64,000 nt of DNA from a virus (IMGVR_UViG_3300013121_000046), one strand, 5' to 3'. Shown: positions 30,830-53,363, counted from the stretch's first letter. Translations and numbers: made by a program. Notes: a model not told the origin generated them from the sequence alone.

Positions 30830-32395
30830 CTAGCCAGCCAGTGCGTCGGCCGCGTGAGCCAGTCTGATAAGGCATTTTTCACGACCCAAAATCGCCAGGC
30901 AGTCCCACAAACCGGCCCCCACCCCGCGTCCCGTGGTGGCAACTCGCACCGGATGAACCAGGTCGCCCAGTCTGAAGCCTTGCGCCTCACAAAAGGCGTG
31001 CGCCGCAGCCTCAAGCTGGGCGGACTCAAAAGGATCAACCGCCGACAATCGCTCGGCAAAACTGCGGAGCAATTCGCCCGTGCCGGGGGGCTTCAACCGT
31101 TTCTCCACCGCGCTCGGGTCATACGCGAGGGGCTCGACCAAAAACGGCTCGGCATAGGCCAGAATGTCGCCCGCCACCTTGAGCCGGTCGCCCGCCGCCT
31201 CGATCACGCGGGCGAGCGTCGTCAGCGCCGCAGTCCTCGCGGCGGGTTCGGCCGGCAGCCAACCGGCTCGTTCGACATAGGGCTGCATCCGGGCGAGCTT
31301 CTCGTCGCTCGAAAGCCGCCGCATATATTCTTCCTGGAACGACCAGAGCTTCTTGGGATCGAAGCTGGCCGGCGACTGGTTCACACGTTCCAACGAAAAA
31401 TGTGCGATCATTTCCTGGCGCGAGAGATACTCCGTCTTGTCGTCGAGCGACCAGCCCAAGAGCATCAGGTAGTTGATAATCGCGTCGGGCAAATAGCCCA
31501 CCTGCTCGTAGAAATCGACGATCACGGGGTTAAACGTGTCAGCCGTGGTTTCGAGCCCCAGCAGCTTGGCAATCGCCAGCCCGTGCTCGTTCACCTGGGC
31601 AAAGTCGCGGTTCTTCAGATACTTGTCGAGCTTGCGCTTGCTGAGCTTGTTCTTCGAGCCCGGCTCGGCCACATAGGGCAAGTGGGCATACACGGGAAGC
31701 GGGTAACCGAGCCCCTGGGCGATGAACACCTGCCGGGGCGTGTTCGACAGGTGCTCTTCGGCCCGGATCACATGGGTGATCTTGAAATCGTAGTCATCGA
31801 CCACGCTGGCCAAGTGGTAAAGGCAGGTGCCGTCGGCCCGTTGAATCACATGGTCTTGCTCGCGGGCCCACTCAAACTCCACGCGCCCGCGAACCTGGTC
31901 GTCGAGCACCAGGCTTCCCTCGCGGGGAATCTTGAGTCGCACCACGCCGGCCCGACCTTGGGCCTCGAACCGGCGGCAGGCGTCCGAGGTTTCGGCCATC
32001 CACCGTCGGCTGTAGAGGAAGGGACGCTTCTCGGCCTGGGCTGCCTCGCGCTCGGCCTGGATCTCTTCGGGCGTGGCGTAGTCTCGATAGGCCTGCCCCG
32101 CTTCCAGCAGCCGGGTAACCGCAGCTTGGTAGCGGTCGAGCCGTTGCGATTGAAAGTACGGGGCATAAGGTCCACCCACCTCGGGTCCCTCGTCCCAATC
32201 GAGACCCAGCCAGCGAAAGCCGTGCAGGATGGGGGCCAGGGCCGCCTCGACGTTGCGCACCTGGTCGGTATCGTCGATCCGCAGCAAGAACTGCCCGCCC
32301 TGACGCCGGGCATAAAGCCAGTTGAAGAGCGCGGTGCGGACCCCGCCGATGTGCAGATAACCGGTCGGGCTGGGGGCGAAACGGGTGCGAACCAC
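30830..32395 (-). CDS. gltX: glutamyl-tRNA synthetase (host-like, GC-rich)
   Basis: VRTRFAPSPTGYLHIGG, RIDDTD, ITHVIRAEEHLSNT, KLSKR, C-terminal anticodon-binding domain; GC-rich codon usage unlike the flanks. Confidence 0.96.
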   Translation of the reverse strand: MVRTRFAPSPTGYLHIGGVRTALFNWLYARRQGGQFLLRIDDTDQVRNVEAALAPILHGFRWLGLDWDEGPEVGGPYAPYFQSQRLDRYQAAVTRLLEAGQAYRDYATPEEIQAEREAAQAEKRPFLYSRRWMAETSDACRRFEAQGRAGVVRLKIPREGSLVLDDQVRGRVEFEWAREQDHVIQRADGTCLYHLASVVDDYDFKITHVIRAEEHLSNTPRQVFIAQGLGYPLPVYAHLPYVAEPGSKNKLSKRKLDKYLKNRDFAQVNEHGLAIAKLLGLETTADTFNPVIVDFYEQVGYLPDAIINYLMLLGWSLDDKTEYLSRQEMIAHFSLERVNQSPASFDPKKLWSFQEEYMRRLSSDEKLARMQPYVERAGWLPAEPAARTAALTTLARVIEAAGDRLKVAGDILAYAEPFLVEPLAYDPSAVEKRLKPPGTGELLRSFAERLSAVDPFESAQLEAAAHAFCEAQGFRLGDLVHPVRVATTGRGVGAGLWDCLAILGREKCLIRLAHAADALAG

Positions 32396-33935: not shown

Positions 33936-34508
33936 TTACTCTAACCCCTCGGACACCCCTAAAGACTCAGCAGGCTCTTTCTTCTTCCTCGGCCGATCAT
34001 CCCAGGTCAATAATCCTAGCGGGCCCTGCCCTTTGAGTATCTCCGTACTCTCAGCCAGAGAGGTTGACAAGAAGGTACCGGACAACTGGGGCAACTGAGG
34101 AAGTGCTTCCGAAGAGAATATCTCAAACAATTCACAAACTGGGACAAGCCGAAGATATCCTTCCTGCTTGAACACTAGGAAGTACAAAAATTTGTACTTA
34201 CCTCGCTTTGTGCGATCTCTAAAATGCTTAACTCTAACTAAATCTCCCGGAAATATAGGATACCCCTTACAATCAGTAACAAGGGGTTGTACATTATCTG
34301 ATATTTTGTACTTGTCCTCTTTGGTTAAATACTCCACCCTACCACTGAATAGTAATTCCCAGAGGGCCGGATGCACATGCCTTTTAGAAATTCTCTCAGC
34401 AGCTAATCCAGCTTCAATCTGGCGTAGGCAGACCGGCTTTTGTGCCCACCAGACTAAACGATCAACTGCCGCTACAGCTTGCCTGAAAGGGCTGATTTTG
34501 GTTGGCAT
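33936..34508 (-). CDS. hypothetical protein
   Basis: 190-aa ORF; DCKGYPIFPGDLVRV YopX-like motif. Confidence 0.6.
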   Translation of the reverse strand: MPTKISPFRQAVAAVDRLVWWAQKPVCLRQIEAGLAAERISKRHVHPALWELLFSGRVEYLTKEDKYKISDNVQPLVTDCKGYPIFPGDLVRVKHFRDRTKRGKYKFLYFLVFKQEGYLRLVPVCELFEIFSSEALPQLPQLSGTFLSTSLAESTEILKGQGPLGLLTWDDRPRKKKEPAESLGVSEGLE

Positions 34509-34565: not shown

Positions 34566-34877
34566 CTACCCGAGTCTCCGTGCATCCTCGGGAGTTATCC
34601 CGGAATCCTTCAAAATCCTAAAAAGAGTTCCCGGGGGTATTTGCTTCCCATGCCCAGGAATGGCTACCGTACGAGACGGCACAGTCTCATTCCTCATTAC
34701 AACATGACCACCCGTCGTCCGGACTTCTTGAAAACCTACTTTCTCTAGAATTCTTTTCAATTCCCGAGGACTTAACACCGGTAGTCTACTACCAGACAGT
34801 ACATCCTCCGCCGTAATATCCTCGGAGGCCCTCAAAATCTCAGCCACTCTGTAAGCAATGATTAAGCGTCTTTGCAT
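34566..34877 (-). CDS. hicA: HicA/YcfA-family mRNA interferase domain with N-terminal extension
   Basis: LSPRELKRILEKVGF..RTTGGHVVMR...VAIPGHGKQIPPGTLFRILKDSGI; no hicB nearby. Confidence 0.8.
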   Translation of the reverse strand: MQRRLIIAYRVAEILRASEDITAEDVLSGSRLPVLSPRELKRILEKVGFQEVRTTGGHVVMRNETVPSRTVAIPGHGKQIPPGTLFRILKDSGITPEDARRLG

Positions 34878-34931: not shown

Positions 34932-35537
34932 CTAGTTATCTACTTTGTACATAGCTCTCCTTAGTTCATCTGTATAAAAATCACTAATTTTTTTAGAACA
35001 AATTACCCACCCAATCTTCGTCATCACTTCTCTGCCTCGATAATTCCCGGGAGAAAGGAGTACCTCTTTTCTCTCTCCCAAGAAGCCAATAGAATCACCT
35101 GATTGCCAGTCTAAACCTTCTACCCGAATCTCTAGTACAAAATTTTCTTCCGGAGACTCTATCTTATACACCCTATTCCGAATATTTGCTACCCTAAGCC
35201 TACAGATGCCGGGACCAGATATATCAAACAAAAAATCCCCATAGAGATTCCCTATACGGGCATCGGATACCACCCATTCCTTTATATCCTGAATTCTCCA
35301 AACTCCATTAATAACCTTCCTAATATCTAGAGAAGACTCGGATTCCATATTTAATCTGAGTAATTGATTAAACATCTGCCTGGAGACTGGTATAGCATTA
35401 TTAAAATGCTCCATCTGACCCACTCTGTTTATATAACATAATCCTAAACTGGGTGATGAGAATAACTTCTCGTCACCCTCCCCCCTAAAAATAATATCAT
35501 CAGATAAGACTAGCACTAAAAATCTCCTTATGAGCAA
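34932..35537 (-). CDS. array A paralog
   Basis: GEGDEKL, IPVS, IQDIKEW, LYGDFLF. Confidence 0.75.
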   Translation of the reverse strand: MLIRRFLVLVLSDDIIFRGEGDEKLFSSPSLGLCYINRVGQMEHFNNAIPVSRQMFNQLLRLNMESESSLDIRKVINGVWRIQDIKEWVVSDARIGNLYGDFLFDISGPGICRLRVANIRNRVYKIESPEENFVLEIRVEGLDWQSGDSIGFLGERKEVLLSPGNYRGREVMTKIGWVICSKKISDFYTDELRRAMYKVDN

Positions 35538-35555
35538 TCAGAGTACACTATGGAC

Positions 35556-36195
35556 TCACTCTCTACCCAGTTCATGGTTAATTAAAGATAGGATATTGAC
35601 TTTATCCACAATTATAGGTATCCGACGCAAGTCTGATTCCACCCTCAATCCCCTTAAAGTATTAGGAGACTGTATTATAATCGGAGCCCTATGAGTACCT
35701 CCGGACCAACCGATAACAAAACTGAAGGGGTCATCACTATAATATATTTCCGAACAAGAAACCTCAATCGCCAAAGAATCAATGATACCAGAGTCTAACA
35801 AAATAGTGACAACACGGTAATCCATACATTGCAAAGCAACATCTACTGAACCCGCACCGAGGAGCGAAAACATAAAATCACCCGAAAATTGAACCTTCTC
35901 AGCACCTAATCTATCCCTTACCACTTCCCTATTAGTAACATTCCAAGATAGAATGTTCTTCAGATAGAATGTCCTTCAGATAGAGACGCTCACTCGTGAA
36001 ACTAAAATCTCCGGGAATACTCCGCAATCTCCCCAAAAAGTCGGTTGAAACTTTTATAATATTCCCTGTAGGTATCATTCTTATATCCTGTATGGAGCCT
36101 TGCTCGTCCTGATAAACTGGCTCGCCTCGGATATTGAAGCTTATCTGCTCCTTACCTCTCCCTCGAATAACATCACCAATCTTTATGGTAATCAT
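35556..36195 (-). pseudogene. array A paralog frameshifted by a 16-bp tandem duplication
   Basis: Removing one copy of GAAG(G/A)ACATTCTATCT (35946..35977) fuses the two track ORFs to read LKDILSWNVTNREVV. Confidence 0.85.
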
Positions 36196-36211
36196 AGTAA
36201 TACCTGTACTA

Positions 36212-36853
36212 CTAAGTGGAATCTCGATCTACTTCATACTTAAATAAGTTCAACATACTCACTTTAGGTAAAGATACCCCCATACTAACAAAATAGTTTC
36301 TAACCTCCAGCCCGTATAGATCTCTAGGGGCAGTAAGCTGTATACACATCAGATCCCTGGAATTAGAATTACCTATTGACATTTCTCTTTTAGAGGCCGC
36401 AGACCAATAAATGTATCCACAAGACACCTCTCCACTCACATAGTCGTTATTATTGGTACCAATAGAAAAAGTAGATACCGGAGCAGTGCCATAGTATCCT
36501 ACAGTAGTAAGTATCATCCCCTTAGTACCAACCACAAACGTAAAATCACCATATAAATAGTAGTTCTTACTCCCGGGAGAAGAGGTGGGGGATTGCTCTA
36601 CTCGCGTAACATTCCAAGACAAAATATCTTGAGCCAGCCACCGCTCATCTGGTCGTACATAAAAGTTAACCCCAGGAAAGTTCCTTAAATTCGACAGTAA
36701 CTTAGCAGATACTATATTAGGGGTTATAGTACTGTCCAACAATTTAATTTCTACCCCACTCTCATCATAGTATCTAATATTACCGGAATCATCCAAAATT
36801 AGTCTCTCTTTACCATGCCCTGAAACAATATCCCCGATTCTTAATTGAATCAT
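36212..36853 (-). CDS. array A paralog
   Basis: GHGKERL, QDILSWNV, LYGDFTF. Confidence 0.8.
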   Translation of the reverse strand: MIQLRIGDIVSGHGKERLILDDSGNIRYYDESGVEIKLLDSTITPNIVSAKLLSNLRNFPGVNFYVRPDERWLAQDILSWNVTRVEQSPTSSPGSKNYYLYGDFTFVVGTKGMILTTVGYYGTAPVSTFSIGTNNNDYVSGEVSCGYIYWSAASKREMSIGNSNSRDLMCIQLTAPRDLYGLEVRNYFVSMGVSLPKVSMLNLFKYEVDRDST

Positions 36854-36871
36854 ATAAAAATCCGCCTTTCT

Positions 36872-37489
36872 CTAAACAGAATCTGAACGTAATTCAGCAC
36901 TAATTAAATCCGCAATACCGGGATTACTCAAAGCCACACCCAGACCAGAAGTGTATGTCCGAGCCATTAACCCATGTAGCTCGCTAGGTGCTATCATTTG
37001 CATATCCGATAAAAGATCCTTACCCTCAGCATAAAGGATAACTCTGCTCAAATTTCCCTCTCGCCAATAAATGTTAGGGCATTCTATCCGTCCTACTAAG
37101 GGGTCGATAGTAAGTGTATCGCAAGTGATGAAATTTTGAAGACCGTTAATCCCACTAGATAGAACTGCCTGTATTCGCCCAGTACCACTAAGCTCAAGAA
37201 TAAAATCCCCGCACAAGACCCTATAATCACCATCTATCTGCGCCTGCTTAACCTCCCAGGACAAAATATCTGTAACAGTCAGGTCGGGGTACTGGATTTG
37301 AAAGTTAGCCCCAGGAATACGGGATAACTTTCGCATGAACTTAGTTGAGACTGTAACTTCGGCTAATCTCTGGTCTTTTACAATGAGTTTCCCGCTCTCA
37401 TCAAAGTAGCTAACACCGCCTACGTCATCAACAGACAGTAACTCCCTATCTTGACCGTACAGAGTAGAATTTACCCCTAAATGTATCAT
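36872..37489 (-). CDS. array A paralog
   Basis: GQDRELL, TDILSWEV, LCGDFIL. Confidence 0.8.
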   Translation of the reverse strand: MIHLGVNSTLYGQDRELLSVDDVGGVSYFDESGKLIVKDQRLAEVTVSTKFMRKLSRIPGANFQIQYPDLTVTDILSWEVKQAQIDGDYRVLCGDFILELSGTGRIQAVLSSGINGLQNFITCDTLTIDPLVGRIECPNIYWREGNLSRVILYAEGKDLLSDMQMIAPSELHGLMARTYTSGLGVALSNPGIADLISAELRSDSV

Positions 37490-37496
37490 GGCTCAA

Positions 37497-38174
37497 CTAC
37501 CCAGTATAAGTATCTATAGAGTACTGAATTAAATCCCAAACATTTTCTGATAGCTCTAACTCTAAATTTACACCGGGTATAGCAAAAAATAAATTCCTAA
37601 GCTTCTGAGGGGATTCAATTCTAGCTCGAAAGCTAACATCGTTAGCTGCATACCCAGTTAAATAAGTAGACACCCTCCCACTTGACTCATCCTTTATGTA
37701 AATTTTTAACCCGGAAACCCCTATTACCATATCCCGAACATAGGAACTAAAAACATGAAACATAAATCTAGGGGGAGAAGGTTGTGCAAAGTCTACCCCC
37801 AATACAAAAGAAGCTTCTAGTGAAAGCTCAAATTCACCTTCTAAAGTTGTCTTCAGACCGCCTTTCTCTGATTCCAAACCCAACACATGTCTAAAAGAAG
37901 GCAGAAATTCCTCTTCCCGAACACGATCTACACCCCAATATAACACATCTTTAACTTTATACCTATGATCTAAATCCTTAGAAGAGACCGAAGTTATACC
38001 GGTGTCATTAGCTAGAGCTAATTGTCCCAACAGAGTTGGGGATACCCAAAGGGATCTACCGGCCTGCCTCTCTGTAACAGTAACTCCCCTGGAGTCCGTG
38101 AATTGCCATTCGTCACCCATTACTAATCGCTCCTGCCCCTCCCCAATAAAAATCCTCTGCTTATCCCAAATCAT
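37497..38174 (-). CDS. array A paralog
   Basis: GEGQERL, KDVLYWGV, LEGEFEL. Confidence 0.8.
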   Translation of the reverse strand: MIWDKQRIFIGEGQERLVMGDEWQFTDSRGVTVTERQAGRSLWVSPTLLGQLALANDTGITSVSSKDLDHRYKVKDVLYWGVDRVREEEFLPSFRHVLGLESEKGGLKTTLEGEFELSLEASFVLGVDFAQPSPPRFMFHVFSSYVRDMVIGVSGLKIYIKDESSGRVSTYLTGYAANDVSFRARIESPQKLRNLFFAIPGVNLELELSENVWDLIQYSIDTYTG

Positions 38175-38806
38175 GGTCGGGCTCCTTGAAGGAACTCACG
38201 GATAAAAAAATCCCCCACCTCTGGCCTGCACAATACGTACTGGGGATGGACGTAGTATGGAACAGATACTCGGAGCCCCTTAAGCTCCGAGGGGGACACA
38301 AACATAGATATCCTATTATCCATTAACGGTAATCCAGAGACATTGCTACTACCACCTATCTGCCAATCTACTCTATTATTTGAATATTGTCTAAGATTAA
38401 GATACGTACAAAATAGAGTGAAGCTTGTTTCCGGTAGATATACAAGTAGGGGTTCTTTCTGGGTACTCCAAGTTGAGGGATACACAGACAGTTGACTAAA
38501 ACAAGTTAAAAGCAGTTGAATATCCCCGACAATTTTTCCGTTTAATCTGCCCCCTGAAATACTCTCTACTCCCCAACTCAAAACATCAGTAACAGTTGCC
38601 ATAGTTGTTGGCGTCAAAACTATTTCTGCCCCCGGCAACTTGCATAACCTATACTTCAATGTCAGCGATAGCTTTGTAGGGAGTTTACTAATAACTGAGG
38701 TTTTCCCTAATTCATCTGTGAATTGAAGACGACCACCATCCCAGGACAACTCTTCCAAACCCTCTCCCCTAACACTAAATGAATCCAAGGTATTAGGCAT
38801 TTTCAC
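38171..38806 (-). CDS. array A paralog
   Basis: GEGLEEL, TDVLSWGV, IVGDIQL. Confidence 0.8.
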   Translation of the reverse strand: MKMPNTLDSFSVRGEGLEELSWDGGRLQFTDELGKTSVISKLPTKLSLTLKYRLCKLPGAEIVLTPTTMATVTDVLSWGVESISGGRLNGKIVGDIQLLLTCFSQLSVYPSTWSTQKEPLLVYLPETSFTLFCTYLNLRQYSNNRVDWQIGGSSNVSGLPLMDNRISMFVSPSELKGLRVSVPYYVHPQYVLCRPEVGDFFIREFLQGARP

Positions 38807-39428
38807 ACCCCCTGCGACCCCTCAGAATTTCGGATTTATCATGCCCTATAAGAGCTTTCAAACCTTCCGATAGTGGCAGAAACCTTCTAGATTCTGGGAC
38901 ATCCCAAAGTATATTCCCACCTAATTCAAAAGGTTTTATCAATGTTGGCCCAGAGCGAACCTTCGGATCAAAATACACCTTCTTATCTAAAACCTCCAAA
39001 CGTTCAACCTTAACTGATACCGATAGGGGTATTGGCGAGGTACTCAAATCCCAACTCATGAAGGGTATAAGATTATCCGGTGCTAAAACTATTTCACCAT
39101 AGTGACTAACTATGAATTCATAGTCCCCAATTAAAACATAATCATGTCTAATCACATCCGTATGCCAAATCAAAATATCCTCTATCTGAATGGGCCCATA
39201 CTCTGGAGAAATACGAACAAGAATATCCCTACTATCAATCAATCTCCGAAACTTATTCAATAGAGTTACTGATACCCCCCCAACACTTGCGTGGGTACCA
39301 ATATCACTGCGATACGACCGCATTTCCCCATCTGTAGAAGTATAATCAAATCTCAAATCATCAGAAGCTATCACCAACTTCTCAGGTCCTTCTCCCGTTA
39401 TAGTTACTCCATCCCAGTTAAAGGCCAT
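38793..39428 (-). CDS. array A paralog
   Basis: GEGPEKL, EDILIW, LIGDYEF. Confidence 0.8.
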   Translation of the reverse strand: MAFNWDGVTITGEGPEKLVIASDDLRFDYTSTDGEMRSYRSDIGTHASVGGVSVTLLNKFRRLIDSRDILVRISPEYGPIQIEDILIWHTDVIRHDYVLIGDYEFIVSHYGEIVLAPDNLIPFMSWDLSTSPIPLSVSVKVERLEVLDKKVYFDPKVRSGPTLIKPFELGGNILWDVPESRRFLPLSEGLKALIGHDKSEILRGRRGCENA

Positions 39429-39461
39429 TATATGACTCCAATACTAGTGGATTAGTAGACT

Positions 39462-40079
39462 TTAATTTGGTTCTTTTGAAACCCATTCCCTAGTAGTCTC
39501 AGCTAATAAATCAAGAAGAAAATTGTCTGGGTATATACCGATAGAATTCGGCCTCAAAAATGAGTAGTTCAGACCTGAATCCGGAGATAGCCACCCGATC
39601 TTCCCACCCGTAAAACCCGCCACAAAACCCCTAAGGGGAGCATAGGATAAACCCTCTAAGGAAATCAACAACGGAATATTCTCCCAAAAGGTGCTAAGGG
39701 TAAAAGGTAAAACAGATATCTCCCCTTTTAATGCACTGGTTAAGGTGCCCTGAAAAGAGAAACTCCCAAACAAATGAAATAGAAGATTACTGTTGAAAGA
39801 CTCGATTGTACTCACATCCCATAAATCTATACCGGTAATATGCAGATCAGAACCAGTTGTTTGGGGTATAAGTAAAACACTTTTAGGGACCTTAGGATAG
39901 TCTTTAAGCAACTGAACAAAGAAATCCTTTGATACTACAATGTCTTCCCTTTCAAATACAGAATACGTTCTAGGTTTTTCCCCAGGCTGTGTGTACCAAA
40001 CCCGATTACCCGAATGAAGTATCTCCATACTTTCTCCGGTAGCCTCGCAATGAATCAGTATTTTATTACTCTTCGCCAT
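39462..40079 (-). CDS. array A paralog (divergent)
   Basis: ATGESMEI, VVSKDFF, GIDLWDV, LFGSFSF. Confidence 0.65.
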   Translation of the reverse strand: MAKSNKILIHCEATGESMEILHSGNRVWYTQPGEKPRTYSVFEREDIVVSKDFFVQLLKDYPKVPKSVLLIPQTTGSDLHITGIDLWDVSTIESFNSNLLFHLFGSFSFQGTLTSALKGEISVLPFTLSTFWENIPLLISLEGLSYAPLRGFVAGFTGGKIGWLSPDSGLNYSFLRPNSIGIYPDNFLLDLLAETTREWVSKEPN

Positions 40080-40308
40080 CAGTTTACCTCTCTAAACTTC
40101 CTCAAGTCAGACTCTATAAGAGCCTCCAACCCAACTGATCGGGGAAGACTTCTCAAACCACAAATTGATACCCTTCCGGATACCAAATAAACTTCTCCTG
40201 ACCGCTACCAGGGATATTTACGTTATAGGTATTGTTAGCCCTGCCAACTCCTTGAGTCAGAGTATCTTTCTAAATAGCCCGTACTCTTTGCCTATCAAAT
40301 AATGAACT

Positions 40309-41019
40309 TTAGTCGGATTCTTCAAGGCCCCAATCCCTAGCATACTCTACAACTAGAGCGACAAAATTTTCAGAGTTAATAAGCTCATACTCTTGATCCC
40401 CGATTACATCCATCAATACCCTACCTACCCTCGGATATAAAGTACGGATACTATCAATGCCAGAAAATAAGCACTTATAACCTGCTGGGTGCTCAAGAGC
40501 GGGTAGCAATCTGATCGTTTTACCGAGTACAATAACAGATGCGGGTACGACCTGAGATTCCAAGGAAATCCAAGCCATCTCAGCTATTCCAGGAGTTGGC
40601 TCCATAATCGCCACAGCCTCCAATGAGGCTAAGACAGATAGCTCTAATTGAAAGTCTCCGAATAAATCTATGCCGTACCGTGTATCAAATTCCTGCGGAC
40701 TCTGTACCATCTTACTGGAGCGATTCACAGCCCAACTCAGAATATCCTTTACCTCGCCCTTAAGTTCTTTCGGAGACAAGGTTATGGGAACGCCCCCCGC
40801 CAATCTCCGAACATTATTAATAAGGGCGACAGATACATTAGGGATATGCACCCCATCCCCATAGTAAAAAAATTGTTCAGTCCCATTTCCCTGAGAATCT
40901 ATATACGTAAGGTGATACACCAATTTACCATAGCCAAAATAAGGGTGGTCCTCAGGCTGAATGCTCAGCCTCTCTGGTCCCTCACCCAAAATCACCACAT
41001 CTGGACTAATGTATCCCAT
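40309..41019 (-). CDS. array A paralog
   Basis: GEGPERL, KDILSWAV, LFGDFQL. Confidence 0.8.
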   Translation of the reverse strand: MGYISPDVVILGEGPERLSIQPEDHPYFGYGKLVYHLTYIDSQGNGTEQFFYYGDGVHIPNVSVALINNVRRLAGGVPITLSPKELKGEVKDILSWAVNRSSKMVQSPQEFDTRYGIDLFGDFQLELSVLASLEAVAIMEPTPGIAEMAWISLESQVVPASVIVLGKTIRLLPALEHPAGYKCLFSGIDSIRTLYPRVGRVLMDVIGDQEYELINSENFVALVVEYARDWGLEESD

Positions 41020-41063
41020 GCCTAATCCTCAGAATATATGCCCGACATACCTCTTAGAAGCTA

Positions 41064-41666
41064 TCACTTACTCGGTAAGTCCTTAAGACTTTCCCAATAT
41101 TCTTTTAGTGTGGAATTCACCCCAAGGTTGTTAACATCGGTCCAGTCTACTGCATCAGATTCAAAACCCCTAAAAATATGAGGAAACTCAACTACCGCCT
41201 TCTCTATGTTGAAAAATTGAAAATAATGGTTTTCTGACTCCCTATCAGCTAACGTTATTCTCTGAACCTTAACCGATAGTATGAATTCCCTAGGTTCCGT
41301 CCATAAGGAATAGGAGTGCAGTCTCTCAGACCAAAACCGTACATTCATAAAAGCTGGGGTTTCAACCAGGAATGTAAAATCACCTACTAAAGTATCGGGA
41401 ATACTTCTATCCCAATACTCAGGAGAGAACTCTCTGATATCTTTTATTCTAGCCTGTCTATGGAGGAATAATCGAGTATCCCCCTTAATATTAGACGAAA
41501 AATTTACAAGTAGCCTCTTAATCAATAGAGGAGAAACTCCAAATACCTCTCTAGTAAGTATCTGCTTCCCGCTAGTGTTAATATAAGTTACATCACCCGA
41601 ATCATCACAACCAAATTCTTCTAGACCCTCTCCACTAACTCCTTGACCTGGCTTGAGAGTTATCAT
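41064..41666 (-). CDS. array A paralog, young subfamily
   Basis: VSPLLIKRLLVNFSS, ARIKDIREFS, GDFTFLV, YWESLKDLP; start MITLK at 41666. Confidence 0.85.
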   Translation of the reverse strand: MITLKPGQGVSGEGLEEFGCDDSGDVTYINTSGKQILTREVFGVSPLLIKRLLVNFSSNIKGDTRLFLHRQARIKDIREFSPEYWDRSIPDTLVGDFTFLVETPAFMNVRFWSERLHSYSLWTEPREFILSVKVQRITLADRESENHYFQFFNIEKAVVEFPHIFRGFESDAVDWTDVNNLGVNSTLKEYWESLKDLPSK

Positions 41667-42280
41667 TATCTTTTCTTCCACTTACGCGGTAAGTCCTTAA
41701 GACTTTCCCAGTATTCTTTTAGTGCGGAATTCACCCCAAAATTATTAATATCGGACCAGGTTATTGCATCAGCTTCAAAACCCCTAAAAATATGAGGAGA
41801 CTCAACTACCGCCTTCTTTATGTTGGAAAACTTAAAAAAATGGTTTTCTGACCCCCAATTAACTAACCCTACTTTCTGAACATTAACCGATAGTATGAAT
41901 TCTGTAAGTTCCATCCATAAGGAACCTATGTAATTTTCTTGTAACGGCACCCTTACACCTAAACGGGCTGGAATTTCAACCAGGAATGTAAAATCACCTG
42001 CTAAAGTATCGGGAGTACTTCTATCCCAATACGCAGGAGAGAATTCTCGGATATCTTTTATTCTAGCATGTCTATGGAGGTATAATTGAGAATCACTCTT
42101 AGGATCAGACGAAAAATTTACAAGTAGCCTCTTAATCAGTAGGGGAGAAACTTCATGTATCACCCCAGTAGATATCTTCTTCCCGCTAGTGTTAGTATAA
42201 TTTATACTACCTGACTCAGCACACCACAATTCTTCTAGACCCTCTCCCCTAACTCCTTGACCTGGCTTAATAGTTATCAT
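41666..42280 (-). CDS. array A paralog, young subfamily
   Basis: Same invariant blocks. Confidence 0.85.
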   Translation of the reverse strand: MITIKPGQGVRGEGLEELWCAESGSINYTNTSGKKISTGVIHEVSPLLIKRLLVNFSSDPKSDSQLYLHRHARIKDIREFSPAYWDRSTPDTLAGDFTFLVEIPARLGVRVPLQENYIGSLWMELTEFILSVNVQKVGLVNWGSENHFFKFSNIKKAVVESPHIFRGFEADAITWSDINNFGVNSALKEYWESLKDLPRKWKKR

Positions 42281-42302
42281 TATTTGTACCTTTTAGAAGC
42301 TA

Positions 42303-42920
42303 TCACCTACTCGGTAAATCCTTAAGACTTTCCCAATAGTCTCTTAGTGCAAAACCCTCTTCAAGATTATGAACAACGGACCAGCTTACTGCGGACCAGT
42401 TTGTTGCATCAGATTCAAAACCCCTAAAAATATGAGGAAACTCAACTACCGCTTTCTTTACATCGGAAAGCAGAAAATAATCCCTTTCTGACTTTCCACT
42501 AACTAACGTTATTCTCTGAGTATTAACCGATAGTATGAACTCTGTAAGTTCCATCCATAAGAAACCTATGTAATTTTCTTGTAACGGCACCCTTACACCC
42601 AAACTGGCTGGAATTTCAACCAGGAATGTAAAATCACCTACTAAAATACTGGGGTTATCTCTATCCCAATACTCAGGAGAGAACTCTCTGATATCTTTTA
42701 TTCTAGCCTGTCTATGGAGGAATAATCGAGTATCCCCCTTAATGTTAGACGAAAAATTTACAAGTAGCCTCTTAATCAGTAGAGGAGAAACTCCAAATAC
42801 CTCTCTAGTAAGTAGCTGCTTCCCGCTAGTGTTAGTATAAGTTATCCTACCTGAATCAGCACACCTCAATTCTTCTAGACCCTCTCCACTAACTCCTTGA
42901 CCTGACTTAAGAGTTATCAT
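42303..42920 (-). CDS. array A paralog, young subfamily
   Basis: Same invariant blocks. Confidence 0.85.
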   Translation of the reverse strand: MITLKSGQGVSGEGLEELRCADSGRITYTNTSGKQLLTREVFGVSPLLIKRLLVNFSSNIKGDTRLFLHRQARIKDIREFSPEYWDRDNPSILVGDFTFLVEIPASLGVRVPLQENYIGFLWMELTEFILSVNTQRITLVSGKSERDYFLLSDVKKAVVEFPHIFRGFESDATNWSAVSWSVVHNLEEGFALRDYWESLKDLPSR

Positions 42921-42942
42921 TATCTGTACCTCTTAGAAGCTA

Positions 42943-43545
42943 TCACCTACTCGGTAAGTCCTTAAGACTTTTCCAGTATTCTTTTAGTGCGGAATTCACC
43001 CCAAAATTATTAACATCGGACCAGTCTACTGCATCAGATTCAAAACCCCTAAAAGTATGAGGAGACTCAATTTCTGTTTTCTTTACATCAGAAAACAGAA
43101 AGTAATCCTCTTCTGGGTTCCTATCAACTAACGTTATTCTCTGAGTATTAACCGATAGTATGAATTCCCTGGGTTCCATCCATAAGACATAGGAGTGCGG
43201 TCTCTCAGAACGAATCCATACATTCATCTGGGCTAAGACTTTCACCAAGAATGTAAAGTCACCTACCAGAATATCATGCTTAGTTCTCCCCCAATACTCA
43301 GAAGAGAACTCTCTGATATCTTTTATTCTAGCCTGTCTATGGAGATATAGTCGAGTATCCCTCTTAATATTAGACGAAAAATTTACAAGTAGTCTCTTAA
43401 TTAGTAGGGGAGAAACTCCCCATATCTGTGATCCAAATGCCCGAAGCCCTCTAATATCAATAAAATCTATATTACCTGAATCATCAAACCCAAGTTCTTC
43501 TGAACCCTCTCCTTTAACTCTCTGACCCGGCTTAAGAGTTATCAT
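42943..43545 (-). CDS. array A paralog, young subfamily
   Basis: Same invariant blocks. Confidence 0.85.
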   Translation of the reverse strand: MITLKPGQRVKGEGSEELGFDDSGNIDFIDIRGLRAFGSQIWGVSPLLIKRLLVNFSSNIKRDTRLYLHRQARIKDIREFSSEYWGRTKHDILVGDFTFLVKVLAQMNVWIRSERPHSYVLWMEPREFILSVNTQRITLVDRNPEEDYFLFSDVKKTEIESPHTFRGFESDAVDWSDVNNFGVNSALKEYWKSLKDLPSR

Positions 43546-43564
43546 TATTTGTACCTCTTAGAAG

Positions 43565-44179
43565 CTACCCCTTACTCGGTAAGTCCTTAAGACTTTCCCA
43601 ATATTCTTTTAGTGCGGAATTCACCCCAAAATTATTAACATTGGACCAGTTTACTGCCTCAGATTCAAAACCCCTAAAAATATGAGGAAACTCAATTACT
43701 GTTTTCTTTACATCAGAAAGCAGAAAGTAAGCCTCTTCTGGGTTCCTATCAACTAACGTTATTCTTTGAACATTAACCGATAGTATGAATTCTGTAAGTT
43801 CCATCCATAGGGAATAGGAGTACCGTCTCTCAGACCGAATCCCTACATTCATCTGAGTTAAGACTTTCACCAAGAATGTAAAATCACCCACTAAAGTATT
43901 GGATGTATTTCTATCCCAATACTCAGGAGAGAACTCTCTAATATCTTTTATTCTAGCCTGGCTATGGAGGAATAACCAAATATCCCTCTTAATATTAGAC
44001 GAAAAATTTACAAGTAGCCTCTTAATCAGTAGAGGAGAAACTCTCCCTCTCTTGAATCCAAGTACCTGAATCCCTCTAGTATTAATATATTGTACATCAC
44101 CTGAATCATCAAACCCAAGCTCTTCTGAACCCTCTCCCTTAACTCTCTGACCCGGATTAAGAGTTATCATTATCGGCAT
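43565..44179 (-). CDS. array A paralog, young subfamily (first in transcription order)
   Basis: Same invariant blocks. Confidence 0.85.
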   Translation of the reverse strand: MPIMITLNPGQRVKGEGSEELGFDDSGDVQYINTRGIQVLGFKRGRVSPLLIKRLLVNFSSNIKRDIWLFLHSQARIKDIREFSPEYWDRNTSNTLVGDFTFLVKVLTQMNVGIRSERRYSYSLWMELTEFILSVNVQRITLVDRNPEEAYFLLSDVKKTVIEFPHIFRGFESEAVNWSNVNNFGVNSALKEYWESLKDLPSKG

Positions 44180-44193
44180 CCCGACATAAAAAT

Positions 44194-44235
44194 AAAAGAC
44201 CGCATAAACCCAAAAGGGTAAATAGGCGGTCTTTT
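44194..44235. terminator. probable bidirectional terminator
   Basis: AAAAGACCGC...GCGGTCTTTT inverted repeat with inner ACCC/GGGT stem. Confidence 0.7.
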
Positions 44236-45429: not shown

Positions 45430-45768
45430 TCACTCATCCTCTCCCCTCTTTTTTTGTTCTCGAATAAGTTGCTCTAGAACTTTGCGAGGACAGTCGGCGG
45501 CATGATTTTCTTCTTCAAAACGAACCCACTCACAACAGCAGGCACGGCACGCATAGCCAGTAATACGTGCATGTGAATACGTATTACTGTCCCTGTCCAC
45601 GCACGAGTACTCGGTTTCAACATTGTCATCCTCGACCAGCAGCCTCTCTACAACATCAATAATTTTTTCTTTCCAACTCTCCAACTCAACCAATCTCGCC
45701 GAGCCTAAGTGGGTGTTGTCACTCACTGCTTGACCCCCACTTCCTCGACAATCACACTCAAATCCCAC
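45430..45768 (-). CDS. Cys-containing hypothetical protein
   Basis: CRACC...HAADC; likely start VSDNTH. Confidence 0.5.
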   Translation of the reverse strand: MGFECDCRGSGGQAVSDNTHLGSARLVELESWKEKIIDVVERLLVEDDNVETEYSCVDRDSNTYSHARITGYACRACCCEWVRFEEENHAADCPRKVLEQLIREQKKRGEDE

Positions 45769-46379
45769 CCCCGAGTCTTAGCCATTTGCCGCAGGTTGGA
45801 CAACATGGCCATCCGCTCGGCCTCGAATGGACCGCCTTCTTCGCGGATAAGCTGCTCGACCGCATCAATCGCAACGTCCCAACACCCCCCGCGAATTCGC
45901 CAGCCTCGCGACGTGTCCCACCACAAAAATACCCGATAGCCGTTTGAGAGGATGCCGCCATCCAGAATGCGGTTGTCGCCGCAATCCGCGCCGGCGAAGT
46001 TGGCTTGCCTGAAATCAGCACGCGAGATATAAGCCCTCGCGAGCGCGGCCAGCGTGAGATTAGCCATCGTGAGATTAGTCATCGTGAGATTAGCCATCAT
46101 GAGGCCAGCCCCCGCTAGATCGGCCCCTGTGAGATTAGCCCCTGCTAGATTGGCCCCCGCGAGATTGGCCCCTGCTAGATCAGCCCCTGCTAGATCCGCC
46201 CCCGCGAGATTGGCCCACCTGAGATCGGCACCCGCGAGATCGGCCGCGCGTAGGCTTATTCCCGCCACTATCGCCTTCCTTATCGCCGCTCCCAGGGCCT
46301 CGGATCGGCTTAGCCCTTTGGGTACGTGGCAGGAGTACAGGACGGCTGCGGTGCGCCTGTGCAAGATTTTGACATTCAT
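45723..46379 (-). CDS. pentapeptide repeat protein
   Basis: (ADLAG/ANLAG/ANLTM)n; start MNVKIL overlaps the upstream stop (ATGA). Confidence 0.88.
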   Translation of the reverse strand: MNVKILHRRTAAVLYSCHVPKGLSRSEALGAAIRKAIVAGISLRAADLAGADLRWANLAGADLAGADLAGANLAGANLAGANLTGADLAGAGLMMANLTMTNLTMANLTLAALARAYISRADFRQANFAGADCGDNRILDGGILSNGYRVFLWWDTSRGWRIRGGCWDVAIDAVEQLIREEGGPFEAERMAMLSNLRQMAKTRGWDLSVIVEEVGVKQ

Positions 46380-47230
46380 GGCATCCTTCCGAAGCTCGCG
46401 GGAAACTCTCGCCATTCCCGGCCGTCGAGCATGGCACCGGCCAATTTCTTGCCAACCCGACTGCTCACCGTGCCGTCCTGCCACAGAAAATTATGGCCAC
46501 AGCCTGGATGCTCGCCGCGTTCCGTCGGAACCCACTCGCCCCATTGCTTGAAAAAGAACGGGACGTGCCACTCGCATTGATCGCGAATAGACTTCACCCA
46601 CGCGGGGTGCATCGGGCGCGCATTGGGCCCGCTCTCGCCGCCTACAATGATCCACTGGACGATTTCGGAGAGTTCCCAACTCGGCGACCAAATTCGATCG
46701 AGCGGGCCGAGGAGCGGCTCCGCCGACAGAAACAGGCCGCCGAAGCTGTGCCTCACCGCCTGCGCCTGCGACAGTCTCGTCAGGTACTCTGCGCTCTCGA
46801 CGCTCACGCCGAGCCACGCATTGGGCCACCACTCGCGAGTCGAGGCCAGGCTGACAAGCCGCTCGACGTTCTCCGGCCGCTTGGTCAACAGCAGCCAAAC
46901 GAGGTGCGGCGTCCGTTCGATCAGTCCGAACAGCCGCCGTCTCGGCACCTCCAAGTCGGGTCGATCCTCGAACACATCGGCCAGGCTCGCGCAAAACACC
47001 AGCCGTCGCTCTCCGGCCAGGTTGGCCGCCCGGTCCCACACCAACGGTTGCCGCCAATAACTCTCAGCCGCTACGACTCGCGTTCCGTCGGGCCCCCACT
47101 CACCGAGCACACGGGGATTGCGCTTGCTCAGCGTCTCCGCGTAGCAATGTTGGCACCCCGGCGAGACCTTTGCGCAGCCACGCCAGGGGTTGAACGTGTA
47201 ATCGGCCCACTCGATTTTTGTTTCAGCCAC
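46376..47230 (-). CDS. phage Gp37/Gp68 (DUF5131) family protein
   Basis: TKIEWADYTFNPWRGCAKVSPGCQHCYAE, LLTKRP, SAEPLLG, VGGESG, FFKQWG. Confidence 0.92.
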   Translation of the reverse strand: MAETKIEWADYTFNPWRGCAKVSPGCQHCYAETLSKRNPRVLGEWGPDGTRVVAAESYWRQPLVWDRAANLAGERRLVFCASLADVFEDRPDLEVPRRRLFGLIERTPHLVWLLLTKRPENVERLVSLASTREWWPNAWLGVSVESAEYLTRLSQAQAVRHSFGGLFLSAEPLLGPLDRIWSPSWELSEIVQWIIVGGESGPNARPMHPAWVKSIRDQCEWHVPFFFKQWGEWVPTERGEHPGCGHNFLWQDGTVSSRVGKKLAGAMLDGREWREFPASFGRMP

Positions 47231-47645
47231 AACCGATCTCCTTGGGCCACTCCGTAACCACCTCGGCTGCAACGTCCAAATACCGCAGTATGTCGTCTAC
47301 CGTACGCCTCGGATGGTCGTGCCAATAACTAAATCTCCCCTTAATTCCCATCACCCTATTGGCTCTGGGGATGATCGTCTCCCTTAATATCCGCTCGACT
47401 CGCTCGCGGTTGTCCAGCAGCAGAAGAGAATGACGGTCGATTGCCAGAAATAACGCCCCCTCGACAGTCCACCGAACGGCGGAATGGTCAATTACGGGGT
47501 GTACCACCCGCCAGTTTTTGTCTACTGCGTAACGCGGATAGCCGGAGCCACGCCGGTTTCGTGTCGAGTACATTCGACACCAGCCCGTCTCAAGGGTTAA
47601 TTTCGCATCCTCGATGATGCTCAGCAGGGCCTTGTTCATGTTCAT
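47223..47645 (-). CDS. DUF6197-like phage protein
   Basis: GWCR...WTVEGAL...WHDHPRRTVDDIL; same pattern as 52880..53299. Confidence 0.6.
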   Translation of the reverse strand: MNMNKALLSIIEDAKLTLETGWCRMYSTRNRRGSGYPRYAVDKNWRVVHPVIDHSAVRWTVEGALFLAIDRHSLLLLDNRERVERILRETIIPRANRVMGIKGRFSYWHDHPRRTVDDILRYLDVAAEVVTEWPKEIGCG

Positions 47646-50315: not shown

Positions 50316-50585
50316 CTATCCAACATTAACCGGAGACTCTAAAGTACCCCAAATAAACCAGTTAGGGTATGTCTTGGGATTTGCCCCTTCCCTGGAAAAC
50401 CAAATCCCCCAAATGTGGTAGTCCGGGTCCCAGAAAAATTCAAGAACCATAAGCTGTAAAGATGGGGAGATCCCTGGATAAGTACCTGTCCCATTCTTAT
50501 AAGCCCGAGGCCAATAGCTAAAAGTAAGCCCTGGGAACATTTTCTCAAGAAAATTCTGTATATGCTTGACCGAGTACATATGCAA
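50316..50585 (-). CDS. array B small protein
   Basis: MYSVKHIQNFLEK...YPNWF. Confidence 0.65.
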   Translation of the reverse strand: MHMYSVKHIQNFLEKMFPGLTFSYWPRAYKNGTGTYPGISPSLQLMVLEFFWDPDYHIWGIWFSREGANPKTYPNWFIWGTLESPVNVG

Positions 50586-50651
50586 TACAATCCCACAATA
50601 ACCAGCATTGAATAATATTGGGGTCCCCCCATGCCAACTCCCTTGCCTATT

Positions 50652-50999
50652 TTAAGCTGCTGGGGCTGGATCAAAAGGATCCAATTCCTGGGCATCCTGA
50701 AGTGGAGCCGGAACATATTTGGGGGCCGGAACCCATTTTCTCTTCCAAGGGAGGCACTTTGGCTCCTCTGCATTAATATCCTCTCCCTTGGCTGCCTCCT
50801 TTAGGCGAAGCTCAAGCTCCTCGACCCGTACCTCCAAGTCATGCAATCGCACAGCCTGAGCCTCATCCCTGGCTGTAGCTGCCCCGGCTTCTGCCTCAAG
50901 GGCTCGCACCCGGCACTGCCAAGCTTCTGAAAGCTCTATACCGCGAAAAGCAAACAAAAGCGAAGCTAAACCCAATACAAACTGCAAGAACATAGACAT
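50652..50999 (-). CDS. membrane-anchored coiled-coil protein
   Basis: Hydrophobic N-terminus then coiled coil; AGGAGG SD. Confidence 0.65.
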   Translation of the reverse strand: MSMFLQFVLGLASLLFAFRGIELSEAWQCRVRALEAEAGAATARDEAQAVRLHDLEVRVEELELRLKEAAKGEDINAEEPKCLPWKRKWVPAPKYVPAPLQDAQELDPFDPAPAA

Positions 51000-51005
51000 A
51001 CCTCC

Positions 51006-51287
51006 TCAGAGATTAAGACCAGACACATTGTATCCGCAGACCCTCAGAATTCTCTTGTTGGTGTTAAAGCTTTCCCAGACTCTGGTATAGTTATACCAAG
51101 TAAATATTTTAAGGTCGGGATCATTAGCCTCCCCATAGGCAAGAATAAAGCCTAAAAACCGTATCTCCCGACCTTGGGAATCCCGGTAATTTTGACCATT
51201 GTTAGTGGCAAAAAACACCGTTGGATTACCGTAAGCCGTCTCCCCTAACTTTTCTAGTAGCTTTTTTACCCCCTCCTTTGAGTACAT
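51006..51287 (-). CDS. array B small protein
   Basis: MYSKEGVKKLLEKLG head. Confidence 0.65.
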   Translation of the reverse strand: MYSKEGVKKLLEKLGETAYGNPTVFFATNNGQNYRDSQGREIRFLGFILAYGEANDPDLKIFTWYNYTRVWESFNTNKRILRVCGYNVSGLNL

Positions 51288-51303
51288 CTCAGCTATTCCC
51301 TAC

Positions 51304-51624
51304 TCAGACGGGGGTAAACTTCCGCCAAATTTTCCGTAGGTTTGACTCTATATCGATAAGACCCTTCTGGATGGGGGGGTCAGGTATATACTTAAGCGGA
51401 GGGAGATAGAGTGGAACATAATAAAAATACCACACTTTGTTCGATGCTAAACGTAGGACCAAACTCCCCGTAAAAGCTTCCGAAAGCACGATCTTCATTA
51501 TGCCGTCACTGTCATAACTCATACCCATTGTATACACAGCGGAACTACTGATCTTATCAATAATTCTGTACAGGTCATTCAGTGAGTATTTCATAGTTAC
51601 GCCCCTACAATAATACCCCGACAC
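51304..51624 (-). CDS. array B small protein (likely start MKYS)
   Basis: MKYSLNDLYRIIDK head. Confidence 0.65.
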   Translation of the reverse strand: MSGYYCRGVTMKYSLNDLYRIIDKISSSAVYTMGMSYDSDGIMKIVLSEAFTGSLVLRLASNKVWYFYYVPLYLPPLKYIPDPPIQKGLIDIESNLRKIWRKFTPV

Positions 51625-51687
51625 CCTAAGTTTTTTACAAGAGCCTATATGTCTTCGAGGGAATACTTCATGTCAACATCTATAACA

Positions 51688-52053
51688 CTAGACATGGTGA
51701 CTACCACTTGCCCCCTCGGGATATGGGTATCCCGATTCCCTAAAAACCTGATCGCTTTCACGCATAAAAACTAATCGCCACTCAGGTTTATTATAACATC
51801 CCATGTGACATAGATAGGCTGGGGCTAAATTCCCTAAACACAAAGTATAGAAATAGCAAGTTTCATGGGACAAAACACGACTTAAAGGAATTGATCGAGG
51901 AAAACGGCTATCTGCCCGATGAACTATAAGCTCGGGCTTCCCCAACAATTTCTTGTATAAGCTTATTACGATAGAGTCTGAGTAGTATATACCCAAGGCC
52001 ATAGAAACCCTTAACGAGATGAGTATGGGGCTACTTACCCCAAACAAAAACAC
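51688..52053 (-). CDS. array B small protein (likely start MALG)
   Basis: YYSDSIVISLYKKLLG head. Confidence 0.55.
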   Translation of the reverse strand: MFLFGVSSPILISLRVSMALGIYYSDSIVISLYKKLLGKPELIVHRADSRFPRSIPLSRVLSHETCYFYTLCLGNLAPAYLCHMGCYNKPEWRLVFMRESDQVFRESGYPYPEGASGSHHV

Positions 52054-52165
52054 TCATTACCATACAGAATATTACTACTGGTATAAGTAAAAGAATTGCC
52101 CCCACAAACACGACATGTCCCGGGGGATTGTTTTTAGACTTAAGATCGCTCATCTGCTTCTCCTG

Positions 52166-52438: not shown

Positions 52439-52469
52439 TAAATTAATCTCAGGAAGAGACTAACTCAAC

Positions 52470-53299: not shown

Positions 53300-53363
53300 A
53301 ATTTCATTCCTTCCTTTCTAATCCAGTACCCTGCCCAGTCAGCTAGGTATCCAACCACATCAC

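Follow-up and report, generated by a model that had tools for sequence, protein, structure and literature searches.

What history leaves a virus with some fourteen versions of one gene in a row, and what could it need them for? The question is raised by positions 34,932–44,179 of a 64,000-nucleotide (nt) stretch of viral DNA (IMGVR_UViG_3300013121_000046); we refer to the whole stretch as the window and to this locus as Array A. All sizeable open reading frames (ORFs) of Array A lie on the minus strand and belong to one family, as judged by ORF listing and alignment. An earlier reading, made from the sequence without database searches (the sequence-only reading), had described about 14 tandem paralogs of ~200 amino acids (aa) with a common motif, and ORF listing, alignment and leave-one-out hidden Markov models (HMMs) bear this description out. 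We conclude that Array A is a birth-and-death multigene family in one jumbo-phage lineage, a conclusion that is well supported as far as the history of duplication and recombination is concerned.

Array A holds 13 intact genes of 194–236 aa, one split copy (g13) and one collapsed remnant. We named the copies g01–g14 in transcription order; the five transcribed first are called young below and the remaining nine old.

43565..44179, minus strand: g01, first transcribed copy, 204 aa; family-type start MITL at 44170; lacks the repeated 22-nt spacer and has no clear Shine-Dalgarno (SD) site.
42943..43545, minus strand: g02, young, 200 aa; the spacer TAGCTTCTAAGAGGTACAAATA lies ahead of the gene.
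42303..42920, minus strand: g03, young, 205 aa; carries a 5-codon insertion.
41666..42280, minus strand: g04, young, 204 aa; a deletion in the 3′ spacer adds WKKR to the ORF, and the stop overlaps the g05 ATG (TAATG).
41064..41666, minus strand: g05, young, 200 aa from a corrected start at ATG 41666 (the ORF is open from GTG 41681).
40309..41019, minus strand: g06, old, 236 aa, isoelectric point 4.6.
39462..40079, minus strand: g07, 205 aa, the most divergent copy.
38793..39428, minus strand: g08, old, 211 aa.
38171..38806, minus strand: g09, old, 211 aa; shares 14 nt with g08 and 4 nt with g10.
37497..38174, minus strand: g10, old, 225 aa.
36872..37489, minus strand: g11, old, 205 aa; clusters with its neighbours g12 and g13.
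36212..36853, minus strand: g12, old, 213 aa, the most central member (leave-one-out score 75 bits).
35556..36195, minus strand: g13, frameshifted, in two pieces (35,932–36,195 and 35,556–35,924).
34932..35516, minus strand: g14, last transcribed copy, 194 aa when begun at GTG 35516, which has AAGGAG 7 nt ahead of it; the open frame reaches back to TTG 35537.

The start of g14 is most likely GTG 35,516. Neighbouring genes are separated by anything from a 14-nt overlap to a 44-nt gap, with the sole exception of a 229-nt gap between g06 and g07. An SD-like site lies 5–9 nt ahead of the start in most copies, which suggests that each array gene is translated independently. From their sequences the products would be soluble, mostly acidic proteins of ~23 kDa, and no signal peptide or membrane segment was seen by eye in the array translations.

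How secure is the family? In an alignment of 13 rows (A2, g12 numbering), G12, E16, G33 and G102 are invariant, and L18, L52, D76, L100 and P176 nearly so. Leave-one-out HMMs, for which all five young copies were removed whenever any one of them was tested, recovered 12 of the 13 intact copies with E values from 1e-11 to 5e-23, and no non-family ORF of the window scored. The remaining copy, g07, was recovered by profile–profile comparison only (hhalign E 0.002, 96 in-register columns); we accept it, on this match and on its position, length, strand and motif register, as what appears to be the most diverged member. A six-frame HMM scan of the whole window found both halves of g13 (profile positions 1–79 and 75–181) and no family copy outside the array.

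The copies fall into two tiers. Protein identity is 59–78% within g01–g05 and 14–30% for every other pair, in keeping with the earlier claim that the five copies transcribed first are highly similar and the rest far more diverged. The divergent C-terminal half noted at the same time is also real, since the N-terminal halves of the eight intact old copies are 24% identical and their C-terminal halves 14%. In a maximum-likelihood tree, g01–g05 form one clade (support 98/98) with terminal branches of 0.05–0.17 and a long stem, 2.18 substitutions per site. Terminal branches measure 1.2–4.5 in the other nine copies, which are saturated and do not form a ladder; the sole groupings among them join the neighbours g11 and g12 (84/81) and, more weakly, g13.

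The sequence-only reading had gone further and proposed a polarised age gradient, with new variants arising at the leader end. What we found is a two-tier step, five similar copies and nine very different ones. Mantel tests of array distance against identity gave p values of 0.12 for the old nine, 0.30 when one young copy was added and 0.07 for all 14, and identity is therefore not significantly related to position. Nor is there polarity within the young block, in which the pair with the lowest synonymous divergence (dS), g03–g04, is internal. Of the old copies, it is g14, at the opposite end of the array, that comes nearest to the young clade (22–26% identity, with weak support of 64/41). This tree placement and the likeness to g14 indicate that the founder of the young block was an old lineage recently amplified, and not a derivative of g06.

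The amplified unit can be read from the block itself: one gene plus the 22-nt spacer, repeated with periods of 614, 640, 625 and 625 nt (range 614–640). The spacer after g05 is cut short at ...GGTA, g01 has no leading spacer, and a 9-nt direct repeat brackets the block.

44180..44188, minus strand: left copy of TATGTCGGG, on the outer side of the five-copy block.
41041..41049, minus strand: right copy of TATGTCGGG, after the truncated spacer (TAGCTTCTAAGAGGTA) behind g05.

By a rough estimate, ~0.01 such bracketing repeats would be expected by chance. The repeat may mark a single insertion or microhomology event, although we regard it as an observation and not as proof. Foreign origin of the young block is not indicated, the G+C content at third codon positions being 0.32–0.35 in the young copies, 0.34–0.43 in the old ones and 0.41 ± 0.05 in the background.

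The young copies are 76–88% identical in DNA (12–24% different), which is above their aa identity, and dS between them, by the Nei–Gojobori (NG86) method, is 0.13–0.34. Among pairs of informative sites in g01–g05, 1,498 of 3,741 (40%) are incompatible with a single tree, and the incompatible partitions are clustered, g03 grouping with g04 at nt 319–356 and g04 with g05 at nt 427–468. A statistic like the pairwise homoplasy index was 0.283, as against 0.400 ± 0.014 in permuted data, and none of 2000 permutations gave a value as low. Consistent with this, g05 is a mosaic of g03-like, g01/g02-like and g04-like segments. That g01–g05 swap segments by recombination or gene conversion is well supported, and because they do so the age of the young copies cannot be read from identity alone.

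Copies have also been lost. The sequence-only reading had pointed to one frameshifted copy and to a probable remnant near 40080–40300, and both stand.

35946..35977, minus strand: 16-nt tandem duplication (15/16 identical) that breaks g13.
40082..40269, minus strand: collapsed remnant in the 229-nt gap between g06 and g07, with N- and C-terminal pieces in different frames.

With a single 16-nt unit the frame of g13 is restored and reads through the family motif KDILSWNV...GDFMF. The N-terminal piece of the remnant, a 38-aa frame at 40,156–40,269 that ends IPGSGQEKFIWYPEGYQFVV, was the top non-family fragment among 2,465 six-frame fragments scored against the family HMM. The C-terminal piece, LPRSVGLEALIESD, matches the C terminus of g08, LPLSEGLKALIGHD, at 9 of 14 residues and 71% of 42 nt. 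As RNA, the 229-nt gap folds no better than its shuffles (z −1.37).

The hallmarks of birth and death are thus all present, namely recent duplicates, ancient lineages, a pseudogene and a remnant, and mosaic recent copies; and a lineage-specific tandem expansion is borne out for gain (the five-copy burst) as for loss (the frameshifted and collapsed copies). In this history, which is well supported, a gene-plus-spacer unit was amplified until five copies stood at the 5′ end of an array already old. Similar copies swap segments, diverged copies are retained in the long term and occasional copies are lost, and the other nine lineages are old enough for the scaffold motif alone to have survived.

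Does selection act on the young copies? Their reading frames are maintained in the face of drift: if substitutions fell at random up to the divergence observed, a frame would stay open with a probability of 0.035–0.13 per young gene. Synonymous differences were found in 21 of 85 degenerate codons for invariant residues, which indicates that the constant blocks are under purifying selection and do not reflect homogenisation alone. These blocks are VSPLLIKRLLVNFSS, ARIKDIREFS, GDFTFLV, EFILSV, the RGFE block and the C-terminal helix.

The evidence for diversifying selection, which the sequence-only reading had expected, is of another order. The ratio of nonsynonymous to synonymous divergence (dN/dS, or ω) is unusually high among the young copies, at 0.57–1.35, and to that extent the expectation holds; ω above 1 is not demonstrated. 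In sliding windows, residues 21–50 and 131–150 have ratios of nonsynonymous to synonymous differences (pN/pS) of 1.7–2.1. Four variable segments have ω of 1.0–2.4, as against 0.29–0.92 elsewhere, but they were chosen post hoc, a choice that also lowers the figure for the rest of the gene. The best pair reached p 0.03 for the variable segments, uncorrected, and was the sole pair to do so. For g01–g02 as whole genes, ω was 0.57 (confidence interval 0.34–0.95). With the segments chosen post hoc, one uncorrected p of 0.03 and the bias that recombination introduces, we regard positive selection on the young copies as plausible and suggestive only, and not as proven.

No relative of the family came to light. 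Searches of Pfam, PHROG, NCBIfam, PADLOC and the sequences of the Protein Data Bank (PDB) gave no match at family threshold, in line with the earlier impression that no known domain is recognisable; the best curated-family rows fell far under their cut-offs (SfsA_N, 15.8 bits against 25; BSD2_CRD, 16.1 bits against 27). A word-indexed search of 5.8 billion clusters matched only proteins of a single 236,349-bp, jumbo-phage-like contig, on which all recorded proteins of the family lie. An exhaustive profile search of 1.84 billion representatives gave 11 matches, nine of them exact translations of the window, and no credible family member outside it. The other two, giant repeat proteins of 4,876 and 3,475 aa, we rejected as artefacts of summed repeats: their 43 and 13 matching stretches score at most 9.5 bits each, their hhalign probabilities are 0.3% and 5%, and in the 3,475-aa protein the matching motif is the final hairpin of Ig-like (Big_3) repeats. 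The phage itself had no relatives among INPHARED phages (by megablast) or JGI metagenome contigs, and IMG/VR gave none when queried with g03, the young-copy alignment and two further proteins of the window. Judged by these searches, the Array A family is an orphan peculiar to one jumbo-phage lineage.

AlphaFold2 models built with the paralog alignment were mostly beta and confident, with a predicted local distance difference test score (pLDDT) of 88.8 and a predicted template-modelling (TM) score of 0.82 for g12, and values of 82.3 and 0.77 for g03. These two copies are 20% identical, and their models have the same order of secondary-structure elements: three to four short strands and a helix (residues 1–70), a long meander of antiparallel strands (~72–160) and a C-terminal helix. 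Single-sequence Atlas models of g12 and g03 were poor (pLDDT 0.32–0.36), so the fold signal comes from the paralogs. On these models, each product would consist of a small N-terminal beta domain followed by a long antiparallel sheet packed on the C-terminal helix. The constant parts would be the helix at 46–56, the first halves of the long strands and the C-terminal helix, whereas the variable parts would fall in loops of the N-terminal domain and in two neighbouring hairpin ends of the sheet (~99–120 and 132–150).

No convincing structural neighbour was found in the PDB, BFVD or the ESM Atlas, although the N-terminal 70 residues were barely searched alone. Foldseek gave no match at E ≤ 0.001 against the PDB or BFVD. 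Among 48,161 chains, VIA-align gave a best Z of 5.2 (AcrIF13, 61 residues, root-mean-square deviation (rmsd) 2.6) followed by 4.6 (LptF, 79 residues, rmsd 3.6), where unmatched models typically reach a best Z of 7–8; structural neighbours in the ESM Atlas had TM-scores by query of at most 0.29. We set aside as noise-level matches AcrIF13 and further small inhibitors from phages, namely AcrF10, Ugi and an anti-Cas9 protein (Z ~3). A language-model lead from g12 to tail-tip and GpJ clusters (0.82–0.84) was likewise rejected, as it was not reproduced with g03 and had neither sequence nor structure support.

How might the array be expressed? A stable hairpin stands ahead of it.

44194..44235, minus strand: stem-loop AAAAGACCGC...GCGGTCTTTT with a U-run behind it, the end falling ~15 nt ahead of the g01 start (−26 kcal/mol, z −2.68).

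This stem-loop looks like a terminator or attenuator. A motif resembling a phage promoter, TTTTTGGGTATAWW, has 16 matches in the window at two or fewer mismatches, where 3.6 are expected.

17432, 25807, 27069, 28967, 32990, 34552, 50257, 58052, 58322 and 59718, minus strand: matches to TTTTTGGGTATAWW, several of them just upstream of tRNA genes or of the first genes of blocks.

Intergenic matches flank the array at 50,257 upstream and 34,552 downstream. Inside it there is no convincing site, the sole minus-strand match (36,026) having two mismatches and lying within the coding sequence of g13, and generic scans for sigma-70 promoters and for terminators over 33–51 kb stayed at chance level. 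Given the hairpin before g01 and the lack of a promoter-like site within the array, the genes are probably transcribed by read-through from upstream. The notion of a leader end finds no support in the sequence.

All genes of the 64-kb window are on the minus strand. The window encodes a full-length glutamyl-tRNA synthetase (GluRS; 30830–32395), with class I catalytic and anticodon-binding domains, in a GC-rich island (GC 0.56). Its closest matches, at ≤72% identity, are in metagenome-assembled genomes of Pirellulales and other planctomycetes, and on this clue the host of this uncultured phage is probably a member of the Pirellulales (Planctomycetota). The window also encodes a sigma factor, two exonucleases, methyltransferases and an HNH endonuclease, and no capsid, portal or prohead-protease gene was found in it. 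Upstream, the array is flanked by NT5C, a pentapeptide-repeat protein, DUF5131 and DUF6197 proteins and a weak, sub-threshold VRR-NUC match. Further features of the surroundings are:

17307–58042, minus strand: seven tRNA genes, Met (two, anticodon CAT), Ser, Ile-TAT, Arg-TCT, Leu-TAA and Lys-TTT.
34566–34877, minus strand: homologue of HicA-family toxins (Pfam E 2.4e-16), immediately behind the array on its downstream side; the N terminus is extended by 37 residues.

No HicB was recognised beside the HicA homologue, and the gene that follows it (33,936–34,508, 190 aa) was an orphan in our searches. Since tRNA genes, GluRS, HicA, NT5C, the pentapeptide-repeat and DUF5131 proteins, methyltransferases and the HNH endonuclease all lie nearby, the array neighbourhood is an accessory region and not a structural module.

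Several other features of the window deserve mention in their own right. The pentapeptide-repeat and DUF5131 (Gp37/Gp68-type) proteins share a second GC-rich island (45723–47272, GC 0.61), and the latter has 41–44% identity with proteins from phages of Burkholderia, Xanthomonas, Erythrobacter and Synechococcus. A second array, 6 kb from Array A and much larger, runs from ~50.3 kb (50316–64000) and consists of small (~60–130 aa) co-oriented paralogs, of which all-against-all BLASTP joins several pairs and one foursome (58,559–61,989). An SbcD/Mre11-type exonuclease (7723–10119) is split by an intein with a LAGLIDADG domain. The adjacent paralogs at 12221–13306 and 13573–14805 (361 and 410 aa) have no Pfam or PHROG match and no IMG/VR relative. 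Finally, a 618-aa protein at 19040–20896, whose N-terminal part resembles pectate lyases and which also has an InlB B-repeat-like domain, may be a tailspike or depolymerase.

What, then, are the Array A proteins for? The reading that we prefer, to which we assign a probability of roughly 45%, is that they form a panel of soluble binders, one scaffold with variable segments, used in phage–host conflict. The panel would be deployed against variable targets in the host or in competitors (components of defence, of takeover or of the surface), with each new variant kept on as host populations shift. This binder and host-conflict function, like the effector or anti-defence role put forward in the sequence-only reading, is an inference. 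Several points count against it. For most pairs the whole-gene confidence interval of ω spans 1, the variable segments were picked post hoc, and recombination inflates ω estimates. Both structural models were built on one and the same 13-row paralog alignment, and the clustering of variable segments at one end of the sheet was read from strand topology only. A terminator-like hairpin lies directly before g01, with no promoter-like site inside the array, and no relative was found in which turnover of the locus could be seen. Lastly, the only well-studied jumbo-phage arrays of comparable size encode virion proteins and not cytoplasmic effectors.

A more ambitious version of the binder proposal, which we consider improbable, is that the array is a repertoire of specific binders on a fold not seen before, in which shuffling of segments between copies makes new specificities that neutralise changing defence or surface proteins of the planctomycete host. 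Segment shuffling by gene conversion among cassettes occurs in antigenic-variation and immune-receptor loci. If true, such a repertoire would be a virus-side counterpart of an adaptive recognition repertoire.

The rival that survives best, unlikely but to be taken seriously, is that Array A encodes head proteins, internal or ejected, which are packaged and reach the cell along with the DNA, in the manner of SPN3US paralog family B, the phiKZ inner-body paralogs or the T4 internal proteins. The conserved N terminus would then serve as a tag for packaging or as a protease site, and the variable part would do its work once a new cell is infected. The proteins are small, soluble and mostly acidic, and their most conserved residues form G-x-G-x-E at 12–16, in which we take the G-x-E to resemble the S/A/G-x-E cleavage motif of phiKZ-type prohead proteases. 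However, the N-terminal 30 residues are modelled as ordered strands (pLDDT 90–96) and not as a disposable propeptide, and the conserved G-x-E (14–16) sits in a confidently modelled beta-turn. A precedent is family B of phage SPN3US, with 20 members that have all been detected in heads (PMC5694885), but the likeness is by analogy only, as comparison with ten family B members by hhalign gave a probability of 0.19% and E 0.32. The window, moreover, is without a capsid, portal or prohead-protease gene.

That the products are adhesins or decoration modules exposed on the virion, with an N-terminal half that docks on the particle and a C-terminal half that binds varied host surfaces and so widens host range, is a distinctly poor prospect. 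A conserved N-terminal and divergent C-terminal part is the layout of many receptor-binding proteins, and the tailspike-type protein at 19,040–20,896 shows pectate-lyase-like features in the same window; the immediate neighbours of the array, though, are nucleic-acid and accessory genes and not tail genes. The weak language-model leads from g12 (0.82–0.84) to tail-tip and GpJ C-terminal clusters fall under the 0.9 mark of the tool and are absent with g03, and neither Pfam nor structure comparison yields a fibre, Ig-like or lectin domain.

The sub-threshold structural matches have one recurring theme, lipid binding, which raises the idea that the domain is a lipid- or lipopolysaccharide-binding fold, a curved antiparallel sheet round a helix of the BPI/SPLUNC1/Takeout (‘TULIP’) type or an Lpt-like jellyroll, and carries lipids of the host envelope. 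LptF, LptG, LptC and LptA align over 70–82 residues at Z 3.3–4.6 and Mdm12 and Ups1 reach Z 3.6–3.7, all well under the tool's noise level of 7–8. SPLUNC1, BSP30b, BPI, LBP, JHBP and Takeout head the Foldseek list for g03 (E 0.04–0.5), but TM-scores of 0.11–0.22 may reflect a common arrangement only. Most such proteins act outside the cytoplasm, whereas the array products have no signal peptide, and we judge this idea very improbable.

We think it highly improbable, too, that the copies are functionless by-products of a recombination-prone genome that drift neutrally. Whole-gene dN/dS near 1 in several young pairs, one frameshifted and one collapsed copy, and other large arrays in the same genome would fit neutrality. 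It would not readily leave 13 intact frames despite saturation, with an open-frame probability of 0.035–0.13 per young gene, nor an ω of 0.57 (0.34–0.95) for g01–g02 and of 0.29–0.92 outside the post hoc segments, nor four invariant residues across ~20%-identical copies that share a coherent and confident predicted fold.

Largely refuted is the idea that a site-specific mechanism adds cassettes one by one next to the promoter, with the polarity of integrons or CRISPR arrays to which the sequence-only reading had likened the family: the five most similar copies do lie at the 5′ end, bracketed by TATGTCGGG as by a target-site duplication, but there are no attC-like or CRISPR-like inter-gene repeats (the sole repeated intergenic element being the 22-nt spacer duplicated with the unit), the flanking ORFs that were scanned, not every small one among them, yielded no integrase or recombinase, divergence follows no order among the old nine, the youngest pair lies inside the block and the block founder is not a g06 derivative.

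Tandem paralog expansion in jumbo phages is already known, from family B of SPN3US and from the zinc ribbons of phage G (PMC7824862). The novelty here lies in the family and its predicted fold, to which nothing was matched, in a host that is probably a planctomycete, and in the way that an ancient array and a recent burst of recombining copies clearly stand side by side. Phages of planctomycetes have hardly been studied, and the contig that carries the array is without sampled relatives. With 14 members and a predicted fold that is confident yet unmatched, the family offers a target for solving a structure and for learning what a jumbo phage needs in many variants. The five-copy block is a natural experiment in which duplication, segment exchange, fast amino-acid change and loss are found in one locus, and together with the neighbouring small-protein array it suggests that this phage invests a sizeable share of its genome in diversified paralogs. 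If the products are counter-defence or ejected effectors, they would be a new protein class and a pointer to the host systems that they target.

How does Array A compare with known systems? The sequence-only reading had likened it to the accordions of poxviruses, for which Elde and colleagues in 2012 reportedly described amplification of K3L. Copies in such accordions are near-identical, arise within passages and collapse again. The five-copy block, and it only, is similar in that one unit was amplified head to tail by recombination and then diverged; the comparison fails in that the Array A copies are individually maintained and 76–88% identical in DNA (dS 0.13–0.34), not near-identical and transient. 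The internal proteins IPI–III of phage T4 have a capsid-targeting sequence, a cleaved leader of 10–19 residues, and IPI* is an injected anti-restriction protein. Array A shares with them a conserved N terminus, a variable remainder and a hyperplastic locus, but its conserved part comprises ~115 residues and is modelled as folded.

Among jumbo phages, the closest parallel in layout is SPN3US, whose 240-kb genome encodes the 20-member paralog family B (gp83, gp138–154, gp161 and gp237), all found in heads (Ali et al. 2017, PMC5694885). Their presence there was shown by mass spectrometry, and the number of members ranges from 2 to 20 among relatives (PMC5694885). Both are phages of ~240 kb with a long co-oriented run of highly diverged paralogs that have no assigned fold. 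The two families are nevertheless non-homologous (hhalign probability 0.2%), family B members are mostly larger (~275–500 aa at the locus seen) and no recent recombining burst has been described for them. In Bacillus phage G, a lineage-specific expansion of a zinc ribbon has reached ~35 copies (Iyer et al. 2021, PMC7824862). That expansion, too, is a large one of a small protein in a single jumbo-phage lineage, but the phage G family has a recognisable zinc ribbon fold and a proposed role in DNA binding or as transcription factors, whereas Array A belongs to no recognisable fold or motif class. Birth-and-death families with gene conversion include the multigene families (MGF) of African swine fever virus and the immune-receptor families of vertebrates. 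These have known folds and partly known targets, and the host of Array A is bacterial; the likeness lies in the combination of old members with recent bursts, in pseudogenes and mosaics, and in a constant scaffold that carries variable segments.

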